NCBI GenBank assembly: GCA_013204645.1
Contig: JABMSE010000125.1
Coordinates: forward strand, 1 to 51,696
Direction of reading: 5' to 3'
Source: Candidatus Saganbacteria bacterium
Lineage (GTDB): Bacteria > Margulisbacteria > WOR-1 > O2-12-FULL-45-9
DNA length: 51,696 nucleotides
In this document: positions 4,132-43,395 of the stretch, one piece after another
Layout: every line of letters begins with the position of its first letter
Position numbering within the stretch: position 1 is the first letter of the stretch
Program-made: the position numbers and the translations under genes
The notes under the pieces: model-generated
What the model was told of the DNA's origin: nothing
The model's database searches: none
The model's input: the letters and a program-made list of their open reading frames with translations, nothing else

Positions 4132-4518
4132 TTAATAAACTGTCCTTATTGATTCAAGCGAAGCTACCCCCTGAAGCTGTGGATGCCGAATCAGAATGGT
4201 TACTTTTTTATAGTCTGTGATAGAGCCAGCAGGTACATCCAAAGCTTCAGGGCTCACATAATTTACAACAATCTCATAAGTATAATTGCTTAAATCAGCG
4301 GAAAAGCTAGTTTCAACCTCAGAACTTATACTTCCAAAGCTCTTAGCCATGGATTCTTCGATTTTTCCCTCGGCCAGTGATTGGGCAACCGTAAAAGCAT
4401 CAATATCTGCTCCCTTAAAGCCCGTATTTATAAAAATGGCAATAAGGGCATACATGAAAATAGCAATAACCAGCATAGAAATAATAACCTCGATGAGAGT
4501 AAAGCCAGATTTGTTCAT
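4132..4518 (-). CDS. Prepilin-type minor pilin (PilV/GspI-like)
   Basis: MNKSG/FTLIEVIISMLVIAIF is a class III signal peptide with Glu5. 128 aa. Confidence 0.7.
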   Translation of the reverse strand: MNKSGFTLIEVIISMLVIAIFMYALIAIFINTGFKGADIDAFTVAQSLAEGKIEESMAKSFGSISSEVETSFSADLSNYTYEIVVNYVSPEALDVPAGSITDYKKVTILIRHPQLQGVASLESIRTVY

Positions 4519-5065: not shown

Positions 5066-5821
5066 TTAGCACTTTATCTTGAATTGCTCAAACCTTTTAA
5101 GGCCTATTTTGTGTAATACTAATTTGGCGCAAACCCCTAGAGTTTGCAGGCCATAAACTAAACTGCGCCAGAAATTTATCTCTGAGGCTTCGGAAAAATA
5201 GCGACAAGGAATAGGAATTTCGGAAGCTCTAAAATCAAAGCTTGAAACCTGGGCCAACACTTCGGTGTCAAAAACAAAATCATCTGAATTTTTTTGATAG
5301 GGGATGGTCTCCAAAAGCTTACGACTATAGGCCCTAAATCCAGTATGATATTCTGAAAGATTCAATCTTAAAACTAAATTCTCAACCCAAGTTAAAAACC
5401 GATTGGAAATGAATTTATAAATAGGCATCCCCCCCGCTAGGGTTCCCCGCCGCCCCCCTTTGATCCTTGAGCCCAGCATTACATCCTTTTTGCCCGAAAT
5501 TATAGGTTCTATCAGATCCGGGATCTTGGTAGCGTCGTATTGCCAGTCCGGATGCACCATTACAATTACATCAGCTTTTTGCTCCAGGGCTTTTTGATAG
5601 AGCATTTTTTGATTTCCGCCATAGCCAAGGTTATGTGGGGTTTTCAAAACTTCAAGTCCCAAAGATTTTGCCATCTCAACAGTCCTATCAGTGGAGCAAT
5701 CATCCCCTAAGATAATGTCATCCACACAATTTTTGTCAATATCACGATAAGTCTTTTCAAGCGTTTTTTCCGCATTATAAGCAGGCATAACAACGATTAC
5801 TTTTGTCTTTTTATTTTCCAT
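5066..5821 (-). CDS. Family 2 glycosyltransferase (polyprenyl-phosphate sugar synthase-like)
   Basis: VIVVMPAYNAEKTL...GDDCSTD...VMVHPD are GT2 signatures. The start was moved to MENKK (TAATG overlap with the upstream stop). The track ORF is 5066..5848. Confidence 0.75.
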   Translation of the reverse strand: MENKKTKVIVVMPAYNAEKTLEKTYRDIDKNCVDDIILGDDCSTDRTVEMAKSLGLEVLKTPHNLGYGGNQKMLYQKALEQKADVIVMVHPDWQYDATKIPDLIEPIISGKKDVMLGSRIKGGRRGTLAGGMPIYKFISNRFLTWVENLVLRLNLSEYHTGFRAYSRKLLETIPYQKNSDDFVFDTEVLAQVSSFDFRASEIPIPCRYFSEASEINFWRSLVYGLQTLGVCAKLVLHKIGLKRFEQFKIKC

Positions 5822-7389
5822 TATTTTTTGCGCCTTAAGATAAGCCATTTGTCAATTACCGCTTCCTTTTCGTAATTTGCTTTGAGATATTTTATAAGCT
5901 TATCATAAGCTGCTCCGGGATGAACCCAAATAACGTATTTGGGCTTTTGCACCTTAATATCATCAAGCATTCGCAAGCGTGCCCGTTGGGCCCTTTCGCC
6001 TTTATATAATAACGGATAGTTGTAGAAGTATTTGGAGGCCGCTTTTCTCTGGCTATAAAAATAGACTTCTCCTTCTGAGCCCCAGACAAAAACCTCGTCG
6101 GAAGAGGCTGCGTTTTGTTTTATGAACCCTGCCACTTGTGGGGCGAGAGCAAAATAAGTGATTCCATATTTTTTAATTGAAATTTCTTCGGGCGACAATA
6201 GATGAAACTTAACCCGAGGGATAATACTCATAGCAAAAACTAGAGTGAGCAGAATGCAAACAATAGCCGCCAACCATAATTTTTTAATATTTTCTTTAAG
6301 CCTCAGCAGCCCATAGGCAGAAAGCAGAGCCAGCCCTGGAATAACCTGGATAAAATAATGGCCATAAAAAGTCCTTCCCATACAAACCCCCACAAATGAG
6401 AAGATGACCCAGAGAGCAAGCAACAGCAAATCCAGTTTTCGATCACGAATGAGTATATAGAAAATTGAAAAAATTGAAAGTATCCATAAAAGTGAATTCT
6501 CAAAAATGACAATCCTAAAAAGACGAGGCCACACCCATCTCTGCTCAGCGGCGTAGGCTAGATTATAAAGAATCACACCATCAATAAAATCAGGAAACCC
6601 ACCCTTTAGCCAGAAATAAAGGATGAAAAGCAAGGGGAAGATCATAAAGCCGAGTAATAACATTAGCGGTCCAAAGGGAAAGGTCCAATGCCTCCTTCGG
6701 ACCGAGCACCGAGCCTTTCCTCGGGACGAGGTCGCACCGAGGGGAAGAACAACGCTCGGCACGAGGTGTCGCTTCAGGTAATTATCTACTGTTTGATGTC
6801 GCTTGGGTTTTTGAAATGCTAGATACAAAGAAAAGGCAAACAAAACTAAGAAATTGGGCAAAGAGACCTGTTTTATCATCATAGCCAGGCCAGAAAAAAG
6901 GCCAGATAAAAATAATAAGACCGAATTTCCCTCCTTTTTGTGTACAGCCAGCAAAAAGCAGTAAAGCGCCAGGAGCATAGGTAAAACCATGAAAGTTTCC
7001 GTATTGGCCGAGGTGCCCTGAATATAGGGGCCCCCACAATAGAATCCATAAAAAAAGGCCGCTAAAAGACCGCCTAGGTTGCCCAGGAGCAGCAAACCAA
7101 CGGCAAAAACCGCTAGGGTCGTAAGTAAACTATAGCCGAGAGTAAAAACTCGTATACTGGTTAAGTTATCACCAAAAAGTTTAAATACTCCGGCATAAAT
7201 AAAATAAACTCCCGGCGGTTTGTGATCAAACACATCCCGATAAGGGAGCTCGCCTAAAAGCAATCTTTGCGCAACATAACCATAGCTACCCTCATCTCTC
7301 TCAAAGGGCTCTTTTATATAGGGAATAAACAAGACAACTTGCATAAAAAGGATCAAAACTAGTACTAAGAGGGTGGTTTTCTTAAACAT
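5821..7389 (-). CDS. GT-C fold membrane glycosyltransferase (GT39/ArnT/PMT_2-like) with a GC-rich in-frame insertion
   Basis: More than 10 predicted TM helices. The first loop motif is PFERDEGSYGYVAQRLLLGELPYRDVFDHKPPG. The ATG at 7389 overlaps the upstream stop. Confidence 0.65.
   Translation of the reverse strand: MFKKTTLLVLVLILFMQVVLFIPYIKEPFERDEGSYGYVAQRLLLGELPYRDVFDHKPPGVYFIYAGVFKLFGDNLTSIRVFTLGYSLLTTLAVFAVGLLLLGNLGGLLAAFFYGFYCGGPYIQGTSANTETFMVLPMLLALYCFLLAVHKKEGNSVLLFLSGLFSGLAMMIKQVSLPNFLVLFAFSLYLAFQKPKRHQTVDNYLKRHLVPSVVLPLGATSSRGKARCSVRRRHWTFPFGPLMLLLGFMIFPLLFILYFWLKGGFPDFIDGVILYNLAYAAEQRWVWPRLFRIVIFENSLLWILSIFSIFYILIRDRKLDLLLLALWVIFSFVGVCMGRTFYGHYFIQVIPGLALLSAYGLLRLKENIKKLWLAAIVCILLTLVFAMSIIPRVKFHLLSPEEISIKKYGITYFALAPQVAGFIKQNAASSDEVFVWGSEGEVYFYSQRKAASKYFYNYPLLYKGERAQRARLRMLDDIKVQKPKYVIWVHPGAAYDKLIKYLKANYEKEAVIDKWLILRRKK
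6691..6775. repeat. GC-rich insertion with internal repeats, in frame inside the GT-C gene
   Basis: The segment cctccttcggaccgagcaccgagcctttcctcgggacgaggtcgcaccgaggggaagaacaacgctcggcacgaggtgtcgc is far more GC-rich than its flanks. caccgag occurs 3 times. ctcgggacgaggtcgc and ctcggcacgaggtgtcgc are direct repeats 35 nt apart. cctcgg/ccgagg form stems. Confidence 0.6.
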
Positions 7390-10838: not shown

Positions 10839-12517
10839 TGCTCAACCAAGAAATCGCCAATCGCCATATATTTGTTTTTTGTTTTTTTAAAGGCCTCGAT
10901 TGCATTAAGGGGACTCTCCACAATGGGTTCACCATGCTGATTAAAACTTGTATTAAGGATTATGCCCTGACCGGAAAGCTCGCGGTATTTTTCAAGTAAT
11001 CTTCTATATTTGGGGTTTTGCTGCCCTAATATCTGGGGGCGGCAGGATCCATCCACATTAACTACCGCAGCAAATTTATCAACCAATTCGGGAGCTATTT
11101 TATAACCCATAGTCATAAAAGGATCAGGATGAAAACTTGCATCACAAACATACTCGCTAAGATTTTCTTCTAGAATGGTCGGGCAAAAAGGCTGATACCA
11201 AACCCGTTTTTTTAAGCGGAGGTTAATGTCATTCTTTAGCTTATGCGAATCTGCCCGGGCCAAAATGCTGCGGTTCCCCAGCGCTCGAGGTCCTAACTCC
11301 ATCCGGCCCTGGAACCAAAAAACAATATTCCCTTGCACTAAAAGCTTAGCTGTTTTTTGGCAAATATCGTCTTCTTTCTTAAAGTTGAGCCCGCTAGCTT
11401 TTAGCGCTTTTTCAATCTGACTATTTGCGTAGTCTCGGCCAAAATAAATATTATCAAATTTATAAGCAGCTACCCCGTTTAATTCTGAATTAGCTAACAA
11501 AGCCGCCCCAATAGCTAAACCACCGTCGCCCATGTGGGGAAAAACAAACCAACCTTTACCCGAAAACAGGTGGCGTATTTTTTGGTTGACCTTAATATTG
11601 GAAGCCACCCCCCCAGCCCAACAAAGATACTCCTCCCCAGTTTCCTTTAAGCAATTAGAAAACCATTGCAGAACAAAATATTCCAGTGCATCCTGAGCCA
11701 TGCGCGCAAACTGCTCACTTGGCGTGTGCCAGAGAATCTTTTCTAAAAGTGACTTCATTTTGGAGGTAGGAACTTTAGCTTTTATCCTCATGCCTGAAAC
11801 GGCAAAAAAATCAAGCATGGGATTATCCTCTTTCGGAATTGGATAAGCAAAATCCGCCAGAGCCATGACTTTTCCTTCATCTTCTAATTCGCGCATATTA
11901 AGCAGGTTGGTTACATGCTCAAAAAAGATGCCCAATGAATCCCGCGCGCTTATTCCCATTATCTTCTTTATTTTTCCCTTAGCAAAAAGATTAACGCTTC
12001 CCGACAACCCATCCCCCACCCCATCTAAGGTAAGCACCAGCCCCTTTTTGAATCCACTGCAAAAACAAGTGGCAGCATGGGCCAAGTGATGGTCAACCAG
12101 GTAGAAACGATAATCAGCAAAGCCCAACTTATTTAACTGAGATTTAAGGTTAGCATTACTTAAAGCCGTGGTAAGAAAACTTGGTCCAAACTCAGTAAAA
12201 ATATACTTCATATTTTTCTGAAAAAGCATAAGCGCCGGGATGGCTTTTCTGCGGCGAATAAGATAATATTTTTCTTTAAGCGAAGGAAGCACCCTGGTCA
12301 AGGTCTTTGAAAAATCAGAGGTTGAAGCAGAAACAACCGCTATATCTAAAGGAGATAGGCCCAAATAATCTAGGCAGGCTTTTATGGATTTAGCTGGGAA
12401 ACCCACATCCAACTTTCTGCCCGAGAGACGCTCCTCATTTATGGCAACCTTTATCTCAGCTCCCTCAATTATGGCAGCGCCGGCATCATGTCCGTCCCAA
12501 ATCCCCAGAATTTTCAT
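10835..12517 (-). CDS. Carbamoyltransferase (NodU/CmcH family)
   Basis: MKILGIWDGHDAGAAIIEG...INEERLSGRK, HHLAHAA, and a C-terminal NTSFNQHGEPIV motif. 560 aa. Confidence 0.8.
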   Translation of the reverse strand: MKILGIWDGHDAGAAIIEGAEIKVAINEERLSGRKLDVGFPAKSIKACLDYLGLSPLDIAVVSASTSDFSKTLTRVLPSLKEKYYLIRRRKAIPALMLFQKNMKYIFTEFGPSFLTTALSNANLKSQLNKLGFADYRFYLVDHHLAHAATCFCSGFKKGLVLTLDGVGDGLSGSVNLFAKGKIKKIMGISARDSLGIFFEHVTNLLNMRELEDEGKVMALADFAYPIPKEDNPMLDFFAVSGMRIKAKVPTSKMKSLLEKILWHTPSEQFARMAQDALEYFVLQWFSNCLKETGEEYLCWAGGVASNIKVNQKIRHLFSGKGWFVFPHMGDGGLAIGAALLANSELNGVAAYKFDNIYFGRDYANSQIEKALKASGLNFKKEDDICQKTAKLLVQGNIVFWFQGRMELGPRALGNRSILARADSHKLKNDINLRLKKRVWYQPFCPTILEENLSEYVCDASFHPDPFMTMGYKIAPELVDKFAAVVNVDGSCRPQILGQQNPKYRRLLEKYRELSGQGIILNTSFNQHGEPIVESPLNAIEAFKKTKNKYMAIGDFLVEQ

Positions 12518-14100: not shown

Positions 14101-15143
14101 CTTAAGAAATCTCCCAAAATAGTTTGATAAGCCTCGCACGGGGTCCAGCAATTCGGGCATTCCTTTTGACGAATAGTTTGTCTTATTTTTCGTGTCTCGT
14201 CAAGATTCCACAGCCGCGAAAGATCAAAGCCGCAATTTTTTAGGTTTCCCAACTTTTTATCAAACAGCGCACAAGGATAAATATCCCCTGACGGACCAAT
14301 ATAGCAGGAAGCCCTAAGTGCCTGGCAGGGCAGCGGGGTTTGGCCTTTTTCAAGAAAGCTGATGAGCAACTTTAAATACTTTTTTTCGATCCAGGTATCT
14401 GGATTTGCCGGCACACGATAAAGCGCGAGAAAATTCTCTATTTCAGAAAGAGCCCCTTCATCAAAACCAGTCCCTGTTTTCAATCTCTGATTGCCATAAT
14501 AATGATCTGAAAAATGGAACAAATTTACATGGAATTGGGTCAACTTAAAATCTGGCACTGCCGAGCGTATGGCAGAAATAGTTTCTTTAAGCCTTCCTAG
14601 ATTTTGGGGGGAAATGGTATAACTTATAAAAGGCTGGTAGCTCGTTTTTGCAAAAATCTTTTTTAATCCTTTAAATGTTTCGATGGCTTTTGTAAAACTT
14701 TTCGCCACCCCCTTAATTTTTTCGTCAATTTCAGGCGGCCCTTCGATGCTTACTCCAATAGCAAACTTGGGTATTGTTATAACTGATCTGATCTTTTCGG
14801 CCTCTTTAAGATAGTGCTCTGGACAAAGACCATTCGAAGTAAAATTTAAAAAATAAAGCTTGGGGGTTTCAGCAGTTATGATCCGGATAATATCGACTAA
14901 ATCAGGACGAAGGAAAGGCTCGCCCCCAGTTAGATTAATCCAGGAAAACTTGTTTTTTTCAAAAAACGTAGCAATCTCATCAAGGCTTAATTCGTCTTTT
15001 TTTTCTCTCTGCCAAATATTGCAGGTGCTGCAGCGACCATTGCAGCGATAGGTAATGGCAAAAGTAAGTTTGTAGGGATCAGCCAAAAGATTGAAGTTAG
15101 AAAAGAGAGCTTGTTTTCCCAGATTTAAAAAAGGAAGAAACAT
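14097..15143 (-). CDS. Radical SAM enzyme with a C-terminal SPASM/twitch-type Cys-rich domain
   Basis: CNGRCSTCNIW is a CX3CX2C motif, followed by LTGGEPF. The C-terminal cysteines are CQALRASCYIGPSGDIYPC...CPNCWTPCE. Confidence 0.8.
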   Translation of the reverse strand: MFLPFLNLGKQALFSNFNLLADPYKLTFAITYRCNGRCSTCNIWQREKKDELSLDEIATFFEKNKFSWINLTGGEPFLRPDLVDIIRIITAETPKLYFLNFTSNGLCPEHYLKEAEKIRSVITIPKFAIGVSIEGPPEIDEKIKGVAKSFTKAIETFKGLKKIFAKTSYQPFISYTISPQNLGRLKETISAIRSAVPDFKLTQFHVNLFHFSDHYYGNQRLKTGTGFDEGALSEIENFLALYRVPANPDTWIEKKYLKLLISFLEKGQTPLPCQALRASCYIGPSGDIYPCALFDKKLGNLKNCGFDLSRLWNLDETRKIRQTIRQKECPNCWTPCEAYQTILGDFLR

Positions 15144-38809: not shown

Positions 38810-39502
38810 TCATCTCCTCTCACCAAATATGGCTCGGCCAATGCGCACCATATTTGATCCTTCAGAAATAGCGATCTCAAAGTCATCGGTCATTCCCATC
38901 GAAAGATACGCAATCGAAACATTCGGAAGGTCTAACTTTCTAATTTCTTCGCTCAATTTTCTTAATCTTATAAAGGAGGGTCTAGCCGCTTCTGGATCAT
39001 CTGCTAAAGGTCCAATCGTCATCAGACCTCGAACGTTAATATTACCAAAATTTGATATTTTTTTCAAAAAATCTACAACCGAATCAGGCGGCAATCCATA
39101 TTTTGTTGCTTCTTTTGAGGTGTTAACTTCAACCAAAATCTGTGTTCCCTCGGGACGAAGTCGGTGTTCTATTTCTTTAGCTAACCGTTCTGAATCAACC
39201 GATTGTATTATAGCAAAGAGATCAAGCGCTTGTCTAACCTTATTTCTCTGCAGGTGGCCTAGCATGTGCCAAGTAACATTTGGATATTTTTGTTTTAGGG
39301 CTTCAATTTTGGGTTTTGCTTCCTGGACCCGATTTTCACCGATGTCGACTATTCCGGCTTGGATAGCTTGTTCAATTAACTCAACCGGAACGGTTTTGGT
39401 AACGGCAATAAGTTTAATCTCTTCGGGATTTCTCCCGGATTTCTGGGCAGCTATTGAAATACGTTGACGAATAGCTTCTAAGTTGGCTTTAATATCGGGC
39501 AT
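38810..39502 (-). CDS. yggS: YggS-family pyridoxal phosphate homeostasis protein
   Basis: LIAVTKTVP, WHMLGHLQRNK and LSMGMTDDFEIAI. Confidence 0.85.
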   Translation of the reverse strand: MPDIKANLEAIRQRISIAAQKSGRNPEEIKLIAVTKTVPVELIEQAIQAGIVDIGENRVQEAKPKIEALKQKYPNVTWHMLGHLQRNKVRQALDLFAIIQSVDSERLAKEIEHRLRPEGTQILVEVNTSKEATKYGLPPDSVVDFLKKISNFGNINVRGLMTIGPLADDPEAARPSFIRLRKLSEEIRKLDLPNVSIAYLSMGMTDDFEIAISEGSNMVRIGRAIFGERR

Positions 39503-39553
39503 GCAAAATCAGTATAGCTTGGCAAAAAAGGGGTGTCAAACCAAAACCTGGTG

Positions 39554-39574
39554 CTTAGGTGCCAGGCACCTAAG
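39554..39574. repeat. REP-like perfect hairpin CTTAGGTGCC-A-GGCACCTAAG in the yggS/kinase divergent spacer
   Basis: 21-nt palindrome read directly from the sequence. Its core is GTGCCAGGCAC. Confidence 0.8.
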
Positions 39575-39692
39575 GGGCAGGCAGGGATCTTAAGATTATG
39601 CGCAAAATCTGAAATTTTTCATCTATTCCTTCGATAATAAACCAGAAGGGTTTTAGTTGCGTCTAGAACGAAGTGAATTTGAGGTTTAAGCT

Positions 39693-40799
39693 ATGTCAGC
39701 GAGAATAAATTTACTACCGCAAATATGGGTTACATCACAACGTGGAGTAGTTGCTCACGCCACGCATGCGGACGTAATACTTAGAAGGGTGGCGGCAAAA
39801 ATTGCAAACCGAGGGGATGACATTAGAGATAAATTAACCGGTCGCTATCGCTTGATAATAAAGCTAGGATCGGGGGCGAGATCAGAAGTATGGATGGTCG
39901 CTAGAGATAAAAGGTTGGGAAGAGGCATGGGAATGGATGCACTGAAATTTTCAGAAAATACGCCCGCGTGTCATCGGACATTGGGGGGGGTTGAGGAGAG
40001 TGGTGTGATTTTTATTCCTGAGTGGCAACGGCGCTATGGACAAGAGTGGCATGAATTTTGTGAGAGGGAGTGGCGTCCCCAATTAAGCATTGAAGCACGT
40101 TTTTTAGCTTTTCTGAATGAAGCTAAGGTGAAAGGAGTGCCACATTATCGTGGATACGGTCGAGTCGGCCTAAAAGAAGAATACTTAGCAATGGACGTGA
40201 TTGGGGGTTCTCCATTAAAAAAAATGCTTCAAGACAAACAGGAACATGGTCAGGCTTTTTCTTTGGCGGCAGCACTAAACATTGTGGAGCAAGTTGCTAG
40301 AACCCTTCAGCAAGCAAAGTTAGCTGGGGATAGGCTGGGCAGAGTGGTAGTAAACGCAGATGTTAAACCACATAATATTGTTGTAACGGAAGATGGGATT
40401 GCAATTCTTCTTGATTGGGGACTTGGAGCACTCATTTGGGATTTGATTCCAAGAGGGGAAGGAATAATACGTGGTTCACCAGCGTATTTGGCTCCTGAGA
40501 GTTGTAAAGGAAAAATGCAAACTTATAAAGCAGATATTTTTTCTCTGGGGGTGGTTTTGTGGGAGATGGTGGAAGGCGAACATCCGTTGGTGGATTGCGG
40601 ATCAGTGGGCGAGATTTTGAAAACAATTGTTGAAGATGACTTTCCACGCTGCACACGTGTGCCAATGGCAGATGGGCTTATTCAACAAATGGTTTGTAAA
40701 GATCCTACGCAAAGGATTGATTACCCAGCATTATTTGAACAGATAAATGTTGTTAGGTGGAATGCCGGCATCCGGCAAACAGGCGGTCCGAGATATTAA
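39693..40799 (+). CDS. Atypical Hanks-type Ser/Thr protein kinase (soluble, single domain, non-RD)
   Basis: Motifs: LGSGARSEVW (Gly loop), ALKF (Lys), NADVKPHN (catalytic loop, with HRD replaced by NAD), DWG (in place of DFG), GSPAYLAPE and DIFSLGVVLWEM. The RBS GAGG lies 9 nt upstream. Confidence 0.75.
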   Translation: MSARINLLPQIWVTSQRGVVAHATHADVILRRVAAKIANRGDDIRDKLTGRYRLIIKLGSGARSEVWMVARDKRLGRGMGMDALKFSENTPACHRTLGGVEESGVIFIPEWQRRYGQEWHEFCEREWRPQLSIEARFLAFLNEAKVKGVPHYRGYGRVGLKEEYLAMDVIGGSPLKKMLQDKQEHGQAFSLAAALNIVEQVARTLQQAKLAGDRLGRVVVNADVKPHNIVVTEDGIAILLDWGLGALIWDLIPRGEGIIRGSPAYLAPESCKGKMQTYKADIFSLGVVLWEMVEGEHPLVDCGSVGEILKTIVEDDFPRCTRVPMADGLIQQMVCKDPTQRIDYPALFEQINVVRWNAGIRQTGGPRY

Positions 40800-40812
40800 G
40801 GTTAATTACTCC

Positions 40813-40906
40813 CTTAGGTGCCTGGCACACTTCCGTAAACCGGTAACCAGTGTCCCAGGAACCGTCGAGAACCTGTGCCAGGCACAGGTTGTGCCTGGCA
40901 CCTAAG
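40813..40906. repeat. REPIN-like element: inverted REP pair with an internal perfect hairpin, between the convergent kinase and RAYT genes
   Basis: cttaggtgcctggcac (40813-40828) and gtgcctggcacctaag (40891-40906) are inverted, 15 of 16 complementary. acctgtgcc-a-ggcacaggt lies at 40871-40889. Confidence 0.75.
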
Positions 40907-40917
40907 CGGGGATTTCC

Positions 40918-41568
40918 CTACCAACGGCGGTGCAGTATTATCCCGCTTTTCCTGTGCCATTTCTCAATAAATTTTCTATCCCCCAACGGCAGCCCCCTTC
41001 TAGTATATTCTCTTATCGTTTCTAAGTATTCTTTGTCCCCCCCCACTTTAATAAATTCCTTCCAGTCTTTTTGCTCCATTCTTATATATTTAAACAAATC
41101 ACCTTTCACAAGTTTAGAATCCTTTTCTTCGCCAATATGATAAGCAGCACTTGACCATGGCCAATCCCAGGCTTTCTTTACCATTTTTGCCCTAACTGGA
41201 TTACGTTCTACATAGCGAGCTGCGGAAAACAGGTGTCTCTCGTCGAGAATGCAAGAATAAAACCTCCCCTCCCACGCATGCCCAGACCGCCCCAATTTTT
41301 TACCAAAATAGCGGCTATACTGGGTGTGGGCACAAAGAATTGTCTTGCTCAATGAATCTGGTTGCTGTGGAACGGCAATAAAATGAACATGGTTGGGCAT
41401 CAAACAATACGAAAGAACAACCAGGTTATACTCTAAACAATATTTGCTTAACAATGAAAGATACTTATTGCGATCGTAATCATCAAAAAAAATCTTCTGC
41501 TTGTTGTTGCCCCGGTGAGTCACATGATACGGATAACCAACTCCTACGATTCGCGGTAATCTTCCCAT
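40918..41568 (-). CDS. IS200/IS605-type Y1 (HUH) transposase of the REP-associated (RAYT/TnpA_REP) kind
   Basis: From Met78 of the track ORF: MGRLPRIVGVGYPYHVTHRGNNKQKIF, LMPNHVHFIAVP (HUH motif) and ARYVERNPVRAKMV (catalytic Tyr motif). AAGGAGG lies 9 nt upstream of this ATG. The 77 upstream codons run through REP copies and AT-rich DNA. Confidence 0.8.
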   Translation of the reverse strand: MGRLPRIVGVGYPYHVTHRGNNKQKIFFDDYDRNKYLSLLSKYCLEYNLVVLSYCLMPNHVHFIAVPQQPDSLSKTILCAHTQYSRYFGKKLGRSGHAWEGRFYSCILDERHLFSAARYVERNPVRAKMVKKAWDWPWSSAAYHIGEEKDSKLVKGDLFKYIRMEQKDWKEFIKVGGDKEYLETIREYTRRGLPLGDRKFIEKWHRKSGIILHRRW

Positions 41569-41581
41569 TTTAAAATCCCTC

Positions 41582-41634
41582 CTTAGGTGCCTGGCACAGT
41601 TAGCTTTGTGCCTGGCACGAGCTGTGCCTGGCAC
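41582..41634. repeat. Direct cluster of three REP cores immediately upstream of the RAYT gene
   Basis: cttaggtgcctggcac agttagcttt gtgcctggcac gagct gtgcctggcac. Confidence 0.8.
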
Positions 41635-41830
41635 GATTTGCATCTCCGGACACCATTTATTAAGTAGTAGCAAGGTTATTACCAGGAATACGAATAATTC
41701 TAATAAAAACCGAATTGCACTAATTTTTCGTATAAACACAACAAAAAGCATTCGCCTCATTCGACTACTCATTTGTAAAATTCGTATTACAGGTGCCAAG
41801 ATCTCGACACCCCTAAATCAACTTGAACTC

Positions 41831-41893
41831 GTACCTGGCACAGTTGCTTAGGTGCCTGGCACGAGCTGTGCCTGGCACCGGCGTGCCTGGCAC
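41831..41893. repeat. Second direct cluster of four REP cores (the first is degenerate)
   Basis: gtacctggcac agttg cttaggtgcctggcac gagct gtgcctggcac cggc gtgcctggcac. About 45 nt are nearly identical to 41590-41634. Confidence 0.8.
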
Positions 41894-41956
41894 AGTTTGC
41901 CAGTTTGGCAATTTCACTTTTAGCCTAATTTTATGTACAATACTTGTATGCCTTAT

Positions 41957-42286
41957 ATGCGAAAATTAAGCTGGCTTTTACTTGTGGTCTTAGCTGCCAC
42001 GGTTATCAACTACCCCAACCCCTTCAATCCCCAAGGAGGAGAAATTACAACCATTGAATGTACGGCCGACACAACAGCTGAAGCCTTCCTCTATATATAT
42101 GATATGGCAGCATGCCGTATTTTGCGCACAGCCTTTAATCAAACTGGCGGCACCACCAACCAAATCACCTGGAATGGCTACAGCGGCTACAATAATCTAG
42201 TGGGAAACGGGGTTTATTTATATTGGATCGTTGACACATCCCGGAATCGGATTGGCAGGGGGAAGATATGGGTTGTGAATCAATGA
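41957..42286 (+). CDS. Small secreted protein consisting only of a FlgD-Ig/T9SS C-terminal-sorting-domain-like module
   Basis: Signal peptide MRKLSWLLLVVLAA, then NYPNPFNP...EAFLYIYDMAACRILRT...ITWNGY...NGVYLYWIV...GKIWVVN. The track ORF starts at 41933. I prefer Met9. Confidence 0.6.
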   Translation: MRKLSWLLLVVLAATVINYPNPFNPQGGEITTIECTADTTAEAFLYIYDMAACRILRTAFNQTGGTTNQITWNGYSGYNNLVGNGVYLYWIVDTSRNRIGRGKIWVVNQ

Positions 42287-43395
42287 AAATTATAAATAAC
42301 AAGTTACAAACAACAAACAATATCAAAGTCCCAAATCTAAAATTCCAAACGTTTCATGCATTGAAGAATGGAACTTTGGTATTGTTTGTAATTTGGTGCT
42401 TGGGATTTGGAAATTTATCCCACGCCCAAACCACCTTCGACCCTCTTATCATAAGCGTTGGGGCCCGGGCTATGGGGATGGGGAGAGCCTACGTAGCCGT
42501 AGCTGAAGAAGGAGATACAATTTTTACTAACCCAGCCGGATTAGGGGAAATCGATGCTTTTAATTTTACCAGCATGGCCGGGGTACTACTGGAAAATGTA
42601 AATTACACCGTGCTGGGTGGGGTTTATCCTCTCGGGGAAAAAACCGCAGTAGGCATCGGTTATGCAGGAGCTCACATTGGCGGAATAGAGATGCGGGATA
42701 TTTCGGGCAACTTTGAGAAAAACACGAGCTTTGTAAATAATGTTTATTTTGCTTCTCTGGGAAGAAAATTGTCTGATAAATTTTCCTTGGGATTAAATCT
42801 CAAATACTTTTCCCAAAATGCTCCGGATGATAACAATGGAAGTGGCACTGGGGTCAATCTTGATATCGGCGTCCTACAAAAAGGATGGGAATGGATCTCC
42901 TTCGGCGTGGTAGCACAAAATATTTTAGTTTCTTCCAAAATCCATTATACAAGTGGGCAAACGGAAGACTTGCCCTTCATCCTAAAAGTTGGAACTAGGA
43001 TGTATCTTTTGGGTGAAGAATTTGAATCTGCCCGCATCTCAGCCATAAAATTAGTTACTTCTGCAGATGCTCATATTAACTTAAGGGAAACGCAACCTAC
43101 CACTGCCCACCTAGGCCTTGAGCTCTCCCCCAACAATTTCTTAACTTTTAGAGCCGGCCTTGACCAGGATCCAAAACCAGGTGGGGTCCAAAACAATTTA
43201 ACTTATGGCTTAAGCCTAACTCTGGCTGGCTTGGGTTTTCACTATGCCTACCACCCTTACACTGAAGCCCTTAACAGCTCCACCAATTATTTCTCCATCT
43301 CTTTTAATGAGGGTGGGTGGCCACCCGAAGGCCTGCCAGATATCTTTTTAGGCGAGCAGAACACCCCCGCTATTGCAAAACTCCCGTCTCTATGA
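42283..43395 (+). CDS. Outer membrane beta-barrel protein, PorV/PorQ/UPF0164-like
   Basis: GARAMGMGRAYVAVAEEGDTIFTNPAGLG is an N-terminal signature. Alternating beta-strand patterns follow. The ATG at 42283 overlaps the upstream TGA (ATGA). The track ORF starts at 42268. Confidence 0.55.
   Translation: MKIINNKLQTTNNIKVPNLKFQTFHALKNGTLVLFVIWCLGFGNLSHAQTTFDPLIISVGARAMGMGRAYVAVAEEGDTIFTNPAGLGEIDAFNFTSMAGVLLENVNYTVLGGVYPLGEKTAVGIGYAGAHIGGIEMRDISGNFEKNTSFVNNVYFASLGRKLSDKFSLGLNLKYFSQNAPDDNNGSGTGVNLDIGVLQKGWEWISFGVVAQNILVSSKIHYTSGQTEDLPFILKVGTRMYLLGEEFESARISAIKLVTSADAHINLRETQPTTAHLGLELSPNNFLTFRAGLDQDPKPGGVQNNLTYGLSLTLAGLGFHYAYHPYTEALNSSTNYFSISFNEGGWPPEGLPDIFLGEQNTPAIAKLPSL
42301..42349. repeat. 7-nt-period degenerate tract encoding the N-terminal extension of the PorV-like protein
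   Basis: aagttac aaacaac aaacaat atcaaag tcccaaa tctaaaa ttccaaa. Confidence 0.55.

Follow-up and report, generated by a model that had tools for sequence, protein, structure and literature searches.

Organization of the Repeat-Bounded Locus

Candidatus Saganbacteria contig JABMSE010000125.1, of which positions 1-51,696 of the forward strand were analyzed (hereafter the window), contains a gene for a Y1/HUH single-strand DNA transposase that is surrounded by copies of the short palindrome GTGCCWGGCAC. Both lie within a repeat-bounded block of 2,340 bp (39554-41893), positioned between two divergent promoters, that of yggS and that of a gene for a small secreted protein, and this block carries two genes, the Y1 gene (40918-41568, minus strand), which encodes a protein of 216 aa (P0001), and a Ser/Thr protein kinase gene. 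A preliminary description had read the locus as a REP-RAYT system, that is, repetitive extragenic palindromic (REP) sequences accompanied by a REP-associated tyrosine transposase (RAYT), and as a new REP family of its lineage. Comparison with homologous loci and with other genomes suggested that the first of these readings holds in part, and that the locus is probably a transposase module with its own, mostly local repeats.

A search of the window recovered ten exact copies of GTGCCWGGCAC (39559, 40818, 40875, 40891, 41587, 41608, 41624, 41852, 41868, and 41883) and an eleventh with one mismatch, GTACCTGGCAC, at 41831, the same numbers that had been counted by eye. Only 0.35 copies are expected by chance in 51.7 kb, and at most two were found in any of 100 shuffles. 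Outside 39559-41893 the 51,696 bp contain no exact copy, the sole other match with up to one mismatch being at 14318, and a two-mismatch search outside the block gave extra matches at chance level only. The extension to a 16-mer was borne out, as CTTAGGTGCCWGGCAC or its reverse complement occurs at 39554, 39559, 40813, 40891, 41582, and 41847, with CTTAG, AACT, AGCTC, or GCCG as the repeat flanks in the window. Two copies had been described as complete hairpins, and both are perfect 21-nt palindromes (39554-39574 and 40870-40890).

All copies are extragenic, given the start of the Y1 gene at 41568, and they are grouped in four clusters. Cluster A (39554-39574) is a single complete 21-nt palindrome, CTTAGGTGCCAGGCACCTAAG. 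Cluster B (40813-40906) comprises three units between convergent stop codons, in which inverted outer 16-mers, resembling a REPIN, enclose the palindrome at 40870-40890; the inverted pair, 40804-40829 and 40890-40915, was verified. Cluster C (41582-41634), with three units, lies immediately 5' of the Y1 gene, and cluster D (41831-41893), with four units of which the first is the mismatched one, forms the distal edge of the block; the two are 48-nt direct repeats of each other with 88% identity. The flank of the last unit in cluster C overlaps the ribosome-binding site of the Y1 gene, CCTCCTT at 41578-41584 (AAGGAGG on the minus strand) sharing the CTT of the 16-mer at 41582, so that the site is partly formed by the repeat, as had been noticed earlier. 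Folded as single-stranded DNA, every cluster exceeded its shuffled controls (z -3.1 to -5.3), including cluster A (9-bp stem, 3-nt loop, -14.8 kcal/mol, z -4.4), cluster B (-28.3 kcal/mol, z -5.3), and cluster D (-26 kcal/mol, z -5.1). The central W is A on the gene strand in 9 of the 11 units, a bias that is not significant (p ~0.07 by our own binomial estimate). A link of the palindrome to CCWGG restriction-modification was considered and rejected, as CCWGG is not avoided within the window.

The Y1 Transposase and Its Class

The Y1 gene starts with an ATG at 41568-41566 on the minus strand, and its product matches Pfam Y1_Tnp (PF01797) with 50.9 bits against a cut-off of 23. P0001 contains the motifs NHVH (59-62), WE (99-100), YVERNP (119-124), and a WSS tail motif (138-140), followed by a C-terminal extension. 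In an alignment of 29 homologues, H60 and H62 of the HUH motif, the catalytic Y119, N123, and P124 are invariant, in keeping with the HUH and YxxxNP motifs recognized in the preliminary description. Searched as a single sequence or as a family profile, P0001 finds its best PDB match in the Escherichia coli enzyme TnpA_REP (4ER8), with Y119 aligned to the catalytic Y115 and H60/H62 to H59/H61 at 19% identity. An AlphaFold (AF2) model built on the alignment (pLDDT 93.6) likewise gave 4ER8, a RAYT bound to a REP hairpin, as the top Foldseek match (E 3.9e-9, TM 0.72 on the target), followed by the IS608 and ISDra2 transposases (E ~1e-5). The C-terminal region forms three helices in the model (166-208); the C-terminal tails of P0001 and its homologues P0006 and P0024 had no Pfam match (E up to 10), and no similarity to helix-turn-helix (HTH) domains was found in them. 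Among 1,483 homologues of P0001, the closest (51-61% identity) are from Candidatus Saganbacteria, followed by Elusimicrobiota and Omnitrophota, and a few are plasmid-borne.

P0001 is a RAYT-like class 2 Y1 enzyme and not an IS200 transposase. The family has been split into subclasses by motif, with Y-x3-NP as the signature of class 2 and Y-x3-Q as that of IS200 (Quentin et al., 2018; PMC6006769), and the class 2 or broad-sense RAYT signature is present as Y119-V-E-R-N123-P124. Within class 2, subclass 2.1 is marked by NHVH, W[EQ], YIELNP or Y[IV]HLNP, and SS in the proximal tail, with a median length of 238 aa (PMC6006769, Table 1), and its C-terminal domain resembles the HTH profiles Bac_DnaA_C, HTH_23, and HTH_28 (PMC6006769). 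It corresponds to RAYT Group 1 (Bertels et al., 2017), and a provisional match has been drawn with the TIRYTs, tyrosine transposases associated with terminal inverted repeats (TIRs; Di Nocera et al., 2013) (PMC6006769). No GT[AG]G-tagged REPs were found beside the genes of this group, and REPs were reported as absent or low-copy (PMC6006769; PMC3733652; PMC5581495). TIRYT genes carry terminal inverted repeats, which are sometimes self-complementary and clustered and whose copy number is low to moderate (Di Nocera et al., 2013; PMC3733652), and many of these repeats share GGGGWSAS (PMC3733652). Group 1 is the most insertion sequence (IS)-like of the true RAYT groups, with a flanking 16-mer found ~12 times genome-wide, some duplicates, and some plasmid copies (PMC5581495).

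At the level of motifs, P0001 fits the TIRYT or TnpA-Y1 subclass 2.1 type rather than the canonical RAYT of GTAG-tagged REPs. The likeness to TIRYTs and their TIRtrons (PMC3733652; PMC6006769; PMC5581495) extends from the motifs NHVH, W[EQ], Y[IV]E.NP, and the SS tail to a length of about 220-240 aa with a C-terminal extension, the lack of GTAG repeats, a gene between short inverted repeats, which can be self-complementary and occur as dimers or clusters, and low copy number with IS-like behavior (insertion and occasional plasmid copies). The repeats of some homologous loci also match the published GGGGWSAS consensus, with GGGGACAG in L004 and GGGACAG in L003 and L166 fitting it or nearly so, and a palindrome conserved upstream of these genes (see below) starts with GGGGTGTC, one mismatch off. 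In contrast, the window core GGTGCCAG falls outside GGGGWSAS, the window repeat is an almost perfect palindrome of 11-13 nt present in 11 copies and four clusters instead of one TIR per side, and the tail of P0001 has no HTH match in Pfam and ends ~10 residues early. To our knowledge, host lineages of the Margulisbacteria type postdate the TIRYT and RAYT surveys.

With E. coli TnpA_REP (RayT or YafM, the enzyme of the REPtron, 4ER8, subclass 2.2), P0001 shares the best match in sequence and structure, the aligned HUH histidines and tyrosine, Y-x3-NP, and a single-copy gene with extragenic palindrome clusters on both sides (C and D upstream, B and A downstream), some as inverted pairs. The two differ in several respects. 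No window repeat has a GT[AG]G foot, and none of the flanks is GTAG or GTGG. The residues by which TnpA_REP reads the GTAG guide tetranucleotide, E100, H101, and R104, are replaced by S105, C106, and D109, and among E. coli W94, Q95, E100, H101, and R104 only the tryptophan is kept (W99). The repeat stem measures 4-9 bp in the window vs. about 12-15 bp with a bulge in E. coli, the E. coli repeats are a dispersed population of hundreds of copies whereas those of the window were seen only within one block, and P0001 has the extra three-helix C-terminal region. Thus, what stood of the preliminary REP-RAYT assignment is the pairing of a Y1 HUH enzyme with palindromes at its flanks, and what did not is a canonical GTAG REP/RAYT pair.

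Repeats at Homologous Loci

Comparison of ten homologous Y1 loci revealed that short hairpin-forming repeats are positioned directly 5' of the gene and, inverted, directly 3' of it in all ten, and that the repeat sequence differs from locus to locus. The repeats are GGTGTCAGTCACC and GGTGACTGACACC in L001, GGTGCCAGTCACC and GGTGACTGGCACC in L171, GTGTCTGACAC in L173, TAGGGACAGACCCTA in L003, GGGGACAGCTTACC in L004, and ATAG(G/T)GACAG types in L166-L168. Those of L001, L171, and L173, together with GGTGCCWGGCACC of the window, form a graded series, GGTG-NC-W-GN-CACC, in which the variable stem positions read CC/GG in the window, CC/GT and AC/GG in L171, TC/GT in L001, and as in GTGTCTGACAC in L173; a second group, of the AATAGGGACAG type, is found in L003, L004, and L166-L168. 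The repeats of the graded series belong to the proteins closest to P0001, so that repeat type tracks protein similarity.

Within the Saganbacteria clade the layout is fixed and consists of distal repeats, a conserved element of ~176 nt, proximal repeats at the ribosome-binding site, the gene, and 3' repeats. The proteins of the window and its sister loci are 51-78% identical, and between the loci of this clade the repeat sequence is swapped at all positions at once. Such locus-specific repeats in a conserved layout argue for cognate enzyme-repeat pairs, as had been supposed, and the combination of conserved positions with a concerted, protein-correlated change of the repeats, which is the strongest evidence available, suggests that the enzyme acts on its own flanking repeats. 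The repeats of the sister loci are restricted to the gene flanks, except for one doublet in L001 that lies 1.3 kb away beyond the neighboring gene and mirrors cluster A of the window.

Several of these loci have features of their own. In L003, a repeat-element-gene unit of ~1 kb is located at the 3' end of a transfer-messenger RNA (tmRNA) gene (5412-5859, minus strand) and lies between the two copies of a 33-nt direct duplication of the tmRNA 3' end with 85% identity (4375-4407 and 5403-5435), which resembles the outcome of site-specific integration, with no integrase present. L171 is a 967-nt contig of one unit with identical 55-nt ends (1-55 and 913-967), each formed by a repeat cluster and the first part of the conserved element; a long direct repeat would account for them, as would tandem units or a circular path through the assembly graph. 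In L166, a second Y1-like open reading frame (ORF; 11070-12083, 337 aa) beside the P0006 gene no longer has the HUH histidines (PTSVNLL), and two copies of GTGCCWGGCAC (10772 and 11010) lie ahead of it, the active-looking neighbor gene using another repeat. In addition, 3' repeat clusters abut or overlap gene ends (40918-40950 in the window, 6120-6149 in L001), and P0005 is short by ~25 residues at the point where its repeat cluster starts; the C-terminus may have been eroded by repeat insertion.

Probable Insertion of the Block and Its Kinase Gene

Homologues of YggS assign the window to the Margulisiibacteriota. YggS of the window is 57-69% identical to its named matches in Margulisiibacteriota (Margulisbacteria, Saganbacteria, and WOR-1), with 68% for two independent relatives (L174 and L175), and the operon yggS-sepF-proC-relA-lptF is syntenic between these relatives and the window. 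Divergent from yggS, the relatives have a gene for a small secreted protein and then a PorV-like gene, 62 and 52% identical, respectively, to the genes at 41957-42286 and 42268-43395 of the window. The start codons of yggS and the small gene are 84 nt apart in L174 vs. about 2.4 kb in the window, and the sequence outside the block (52 + 63 nt) aligns with the short L174 spacer, with both sigma-70-like promoters kept. As the block is absent at the yggS intergenic site of the two relatives, 39554-41893 is probably an insertion bounded by clusters A and D, and the alternative that the block was lost twice in the relatives is less parsimonious. The block is also absent from L176-L178.

An imperfect inverted repeat closely flanks the block, with CCAAAACCTGG on the left (39541-39551) and CCAGTTTGG on the right (41900-41908), and the uninterrupted L174 site holds a single CCAGTTT. 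The composition of the block is unremarkable (G+C content 44.6% vs. 42.2% for the window).

The kinase gene (39693-40799, plus strand; 368 aa) is positioned between clusters A and B, and its product matches Pfam Pkinase with 72.5 bits, the first ~120 residues having no Pfam domain. Only one close homologue was found among 5.8 billion clusters (P0242, 75% identity, on a 1.6-kb contig), all others being at most 38% identical, and no kinase gene adjoins the Y1 gene at any other locus compared. We regard it as a near-orphan passenger or bystander gene.

Dispersal of the Palindrome in the Window and in Other Genomes

Apart from the block, the other 49 kb of the window, with about 50 intergenic regions, contain no copy of GTGCCWGGCAC, which sets a bound on density of roughly one copy per 16 kb or less. 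In E. coli, there is about one repeat cluster per 13 kb, a density at which some four would be expected in 49 kb. A high-density repeat family is thus unlikely in this genome, and a family of a few dozen copies is compatible with the data.

The palindrome is by no means confined to this lineage. A scan of 596 Gb of genome contigs for GTGCCWGGCAC doublets (gap 0-30) returned at least 120 stretches, where about four are expected by chance (our own estimate); the count exceeds 120, often with several contigs per assembly, and the matches listed include Chloroflexota, Actinomycetota, Planctomycetota, Acidobacteriota, Gammaproteobacteria, and several cultured Bacillaceae isolates. The 11-13-nt palindrome GGTGCCWGGCACC is multi-copy and mostly extragenic in many phyla (e.g., L164, L141, L163, L036, and L117), with flanks that vary between genomes. 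Doublets with the CTTAG tag were found in 41 metagenome stretches with a G+C content of 41-72% and up to 11 copies per stretch, and individual assemblies hold multiple copies of the tagged motif on several contigs. In the CTTAG-tagged loci with a G+C content of up to 56%, 108 of 117 copies (92%) are outside long ORFs, though ORFs cover 82% of the sequence. Moreover, a Y1 gene lies within 228 nt of a palindrome copy in 7 of 161 loci that had been chosen only for a palindrome doublet, and the seven proteins share 25-43% identity with P0001 and differ in motif type.

This recurrence, extragenic and adjoining Y1 genes, in many phyla indicates that the core palindrome is not an invention of this lineage, and the proposal of a new REP family of this lineage is wrong for the core sequence, since the 11-mer recurs, even when CTTAG-tagged, as a dispersed repeat outside the genes of many other phyla. 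Its presence beside unrelated Y1 genes in several phyla points to either horizontal movement of repeat-enzyme modules or convergence on one hairpin. One of the palindrome loci, L141, also has six tandem 33-nt repeats (14488-14696), each with GTGCCTGGCAC, ~2 kb from its palindrome-flanked Y1 gene. Homologues of yggS on two palindrome contigs (L136 and L163) are 3-4 kb from the repeats, and we consider this a coincidence.

A Probable Transposase Module with Mostly Local Repeats

Taken together, these results make it probable that the locus is a module of a Y1 transposase and its cognate repeats (a REPtron or TIRtron) of the TIRYT or subclass 2.1 type, whose repeats are mostly local and which resides in an inserted block. 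The substrates would be short hairpins built on GGTGCC-W-GGCACC, often CTTAG-tagged. At a replication fork, or wherever else DNA becomes single-stranded, the palindromes could extrude as hairpins, and the enzyme would bind these and cut and rejoin the DNA beside them by means of Tyr119 and a metal site at His60/His62. Repeated cutting and rejoining may have multiplied and homogenized the units into the four clusters around the gene, and the 2.34-kb block with its passenger kinase may have been acquired by insertion between the two divergent promoters. In the Saganbacteria clade the repeats would then be mostly local and low in copy number, in the manner of a TIRtron, and not a large REP population.

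A number of points weigh against this interpretation. P0001 aligns with the full NCBIfam RAYT model NF047646 (REP_Tyr_transpos) at 71.7 bits, below the cut-off of 80. It is without the basic C-terminal RGRPxK tail (the last ~10 residues) that is present in most relatives, and may for this reason be impaired. Cleavage of the repeats by P0001 is a prediction from sequence comparison, and the near-perfect palindromic units offer weak cues for strand and orientation, which are typical of Y1 substrates, since only the central W and the flanks differ. Multiplication of the units by slippage or gene conversion could also have occurred locally. Finally, the direction of the insertion-deletion event, insertion in the window or loss in the relatives, depends on parsimony over two relatives.

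The foremost alternative is a classical domesticated REP/RAYT system, with a single master RAYT and a high-copy family of REPs or REPINs dispersed through the intergenic regions. The repeats on both flanks of the gene, the REPIN-like geometry of cluster B, TnpA_REP as the closest structure, and a CTTAG-tagged motif that is multi-copy and largely extragenic (108 of 117 copies) in other assemblies all speak for it. We nevertheless hold it to be unlikely, in view of zero copies in the remaining 49 kb, the missing GT[AG]G foot with its replaced reading residues, motifs of subclass 2.1 or Group 1, which is low-copy and IS-like (PMC5581495; PMC6006769), sister-locus repeats that are local only, and the absence of the block from two relatives, which is at odds with long vertical residence.

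Considerably less probable is an autonomous insertion sequence of the IS200/IS605 type with subterminal hairpins and additional cargo DNA. The TnpA proteins of IS608 and ISDra2 have the same HUH/Y1 fold and act on single-stranded DNA hairpins, as P0001 may also do, and the behavior of the block as an insertion, the ~1-kb L003 unit at the tmRNA 3' end with its 33-nt duplication, the identical 55-nt termini of L171, and the few homologues on plasmids would all suit such an element. However, P0001 is longer, has Y-x3-NP and not Y-x3-Q (PMC6006769), and scores 16.6 against a cut-off of 55 with the NCBIfam IS200 model NF033573. The locus has no tnpB, and many repeat units at each end in place of one defined left-end and one right-end hairpin. 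It is also not multi-copy, as the window contains a single copy, only one contig is on record for the protein cluster, and the homologues are 45-61% identical instead of near-identical.

The remaining possibility, that the palindromes are operators, bidirectional terminators, or sigma-54-like sites unrelated to a Y1 gene that is a bystander or a decaying remnant, has in its favor the terminator position of cluster B between convergent genes, doublets near the sigma-54 consensus (see below), the place of cluster C in the presumed 5' leader beside the ribosome-binding site, and the lost C-terminal tail of P0001, but it is the most improbable of the three, given hairpins with no T-run after them, a terminator scan at chance level, orthologous repeats that change together with the protein unlike the site of a host factor, a palindrome that abuts Y1 genes in seven unrelated loci, and catalytic residues that are all intact.

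Understood as a transposase module with cognate and mostly local repeats, the locus is a further example of a known arrangement in a poorly studied phylum. The biology of RAYTs and REPs has been worked out almost entirely in Proteobacteria, and for Group 1, subclass 2.1, or TIRYT enzymes, the largest and most IS-like group of RAYTs, we know of no demonstrated substrate. The window and its sister loci provide a natural series of enzyme-hairpin specificities, in which hairpins differ by one or two stem positions within the same gene architecture, so that how a Y1 enzyme reads its hairpin is directly testable by swaps of repeats and proteins. In addition, the block, with repeats at its bounds and a passenger gene inside, is seen here as a cleanly inserted unit. 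The known picture is left unchanged and is extended to a little-studied phylum, with a lead to regulated RAYT expression that comes from the region upstream of the gene.

A Conserved Element Upstream of the Transposase Gene

Between clusters D and C, a conserved non-coding element of 176 nt (41640-41815, minus strand; nhmmer E 1.5e-37) is present once per locus, 5' of every Y1 gene of the Saganbacteria clade and nowhere else in the DNA compared (L001 5334-5503, L003 4462-4618, L171 45-213, and L004 2-183). It is 89-90% identical to its counterparts in L003 and L002 over 41-72 nt vs. 67-70% for the coding sequence. The element begins with a 20-22-nt palindrome, GGGTGTCGAGATCTCGACACCC (41792-41811 in the window), and ends with an invariant block, CTGGTAATAACCTTGCT (41669-41685), that contains TGGTAATAACCTTGCT (41669-41684), a sequence resembling the -24/-12 elements of sigma-54 promoters. 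Compared with the sigma-54 consensus TGGCAC-N5-TTGCW, the invariant block agrees at GG-N10-GC and at TTGC, the critical positions, and it is the sole match to TGGNA-N6-TTGCW in the window; taken by itself in the window, the motif is not statistically convincing. Four loci have 118-119 nt between the palindrome center and the GG, and L004 has 141 nt owing to an inserted 22-nt repeat; the spacing between the block and the ribosome-binding site varies between 32 and 88 nt, depending on how large the proximal repeat cluster is.

No support was obtained for a structured RNA, which we rejected: RNAalifold returned the palindrome and a trivial hairpin only, with no compensatory changes, and an Rfam search of 39400-42100 gave two spurious microRNA matches and none for the conserved element. 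A DNA-level regulatory element is thus preferred. A consensus scan found no sigma-70 promoter in the element, and the conserved block had no matches in viral contigs. The fixed geometry between the palindrome and the -24/-12-like block tentatively suggests an enhancer-dependent promoter region of the sigma-54 type, an idea that we raise as a possibility and do not consider likely. Going further, it is conceivable, if doubtful, that the Y1 enzyme of the Saganbacteria clade is not constitutive and is governed by a switch of sigma-54 and an enhancer-binding protein, in which CTGGTAATAACCTTGCT would serve as the promoter and GGGTGTCGAGATCTCGACACCC as the activator site, and repeats would be tolerated only downstream, in the leader. 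Genes for rpoN or enhancer-binding proteins were found neither in the window nor in about 120 kb of relatives, a sample too small to be informative, and we found no literature on sigma-54 control of such Y1 genes.

The repeats themselves come close to the same consensus. Doublets with a 5-nt spacer read TGGCACGAGCTGTGC (TGGCAC-N5-GTGC), near the sigma-54 -24/-12 consensus, and two were found vs. 0.14 expected. They are located at 41613-41627 and 41857-41871 on the plus strand and point away from the Y1 gene, the second one toward the small gene at 41957. If the sigma-54 switch were real, spreading doublets could seed new sites of the sigma-54 type.

Upstream regions of another kind were observed by eye at the more distant homologues L166 (9955-10000), L167 (9960-10000), and L168 (9960-10000), where a near-consensus sigma-70 promoter directly follows the upstream repeat. 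In L167 it reads TTGACA-17-TATAAT, with the start codon 6 nt after the -10 element, and this proximity suggests that the leaders of these homologues are very short or absent.

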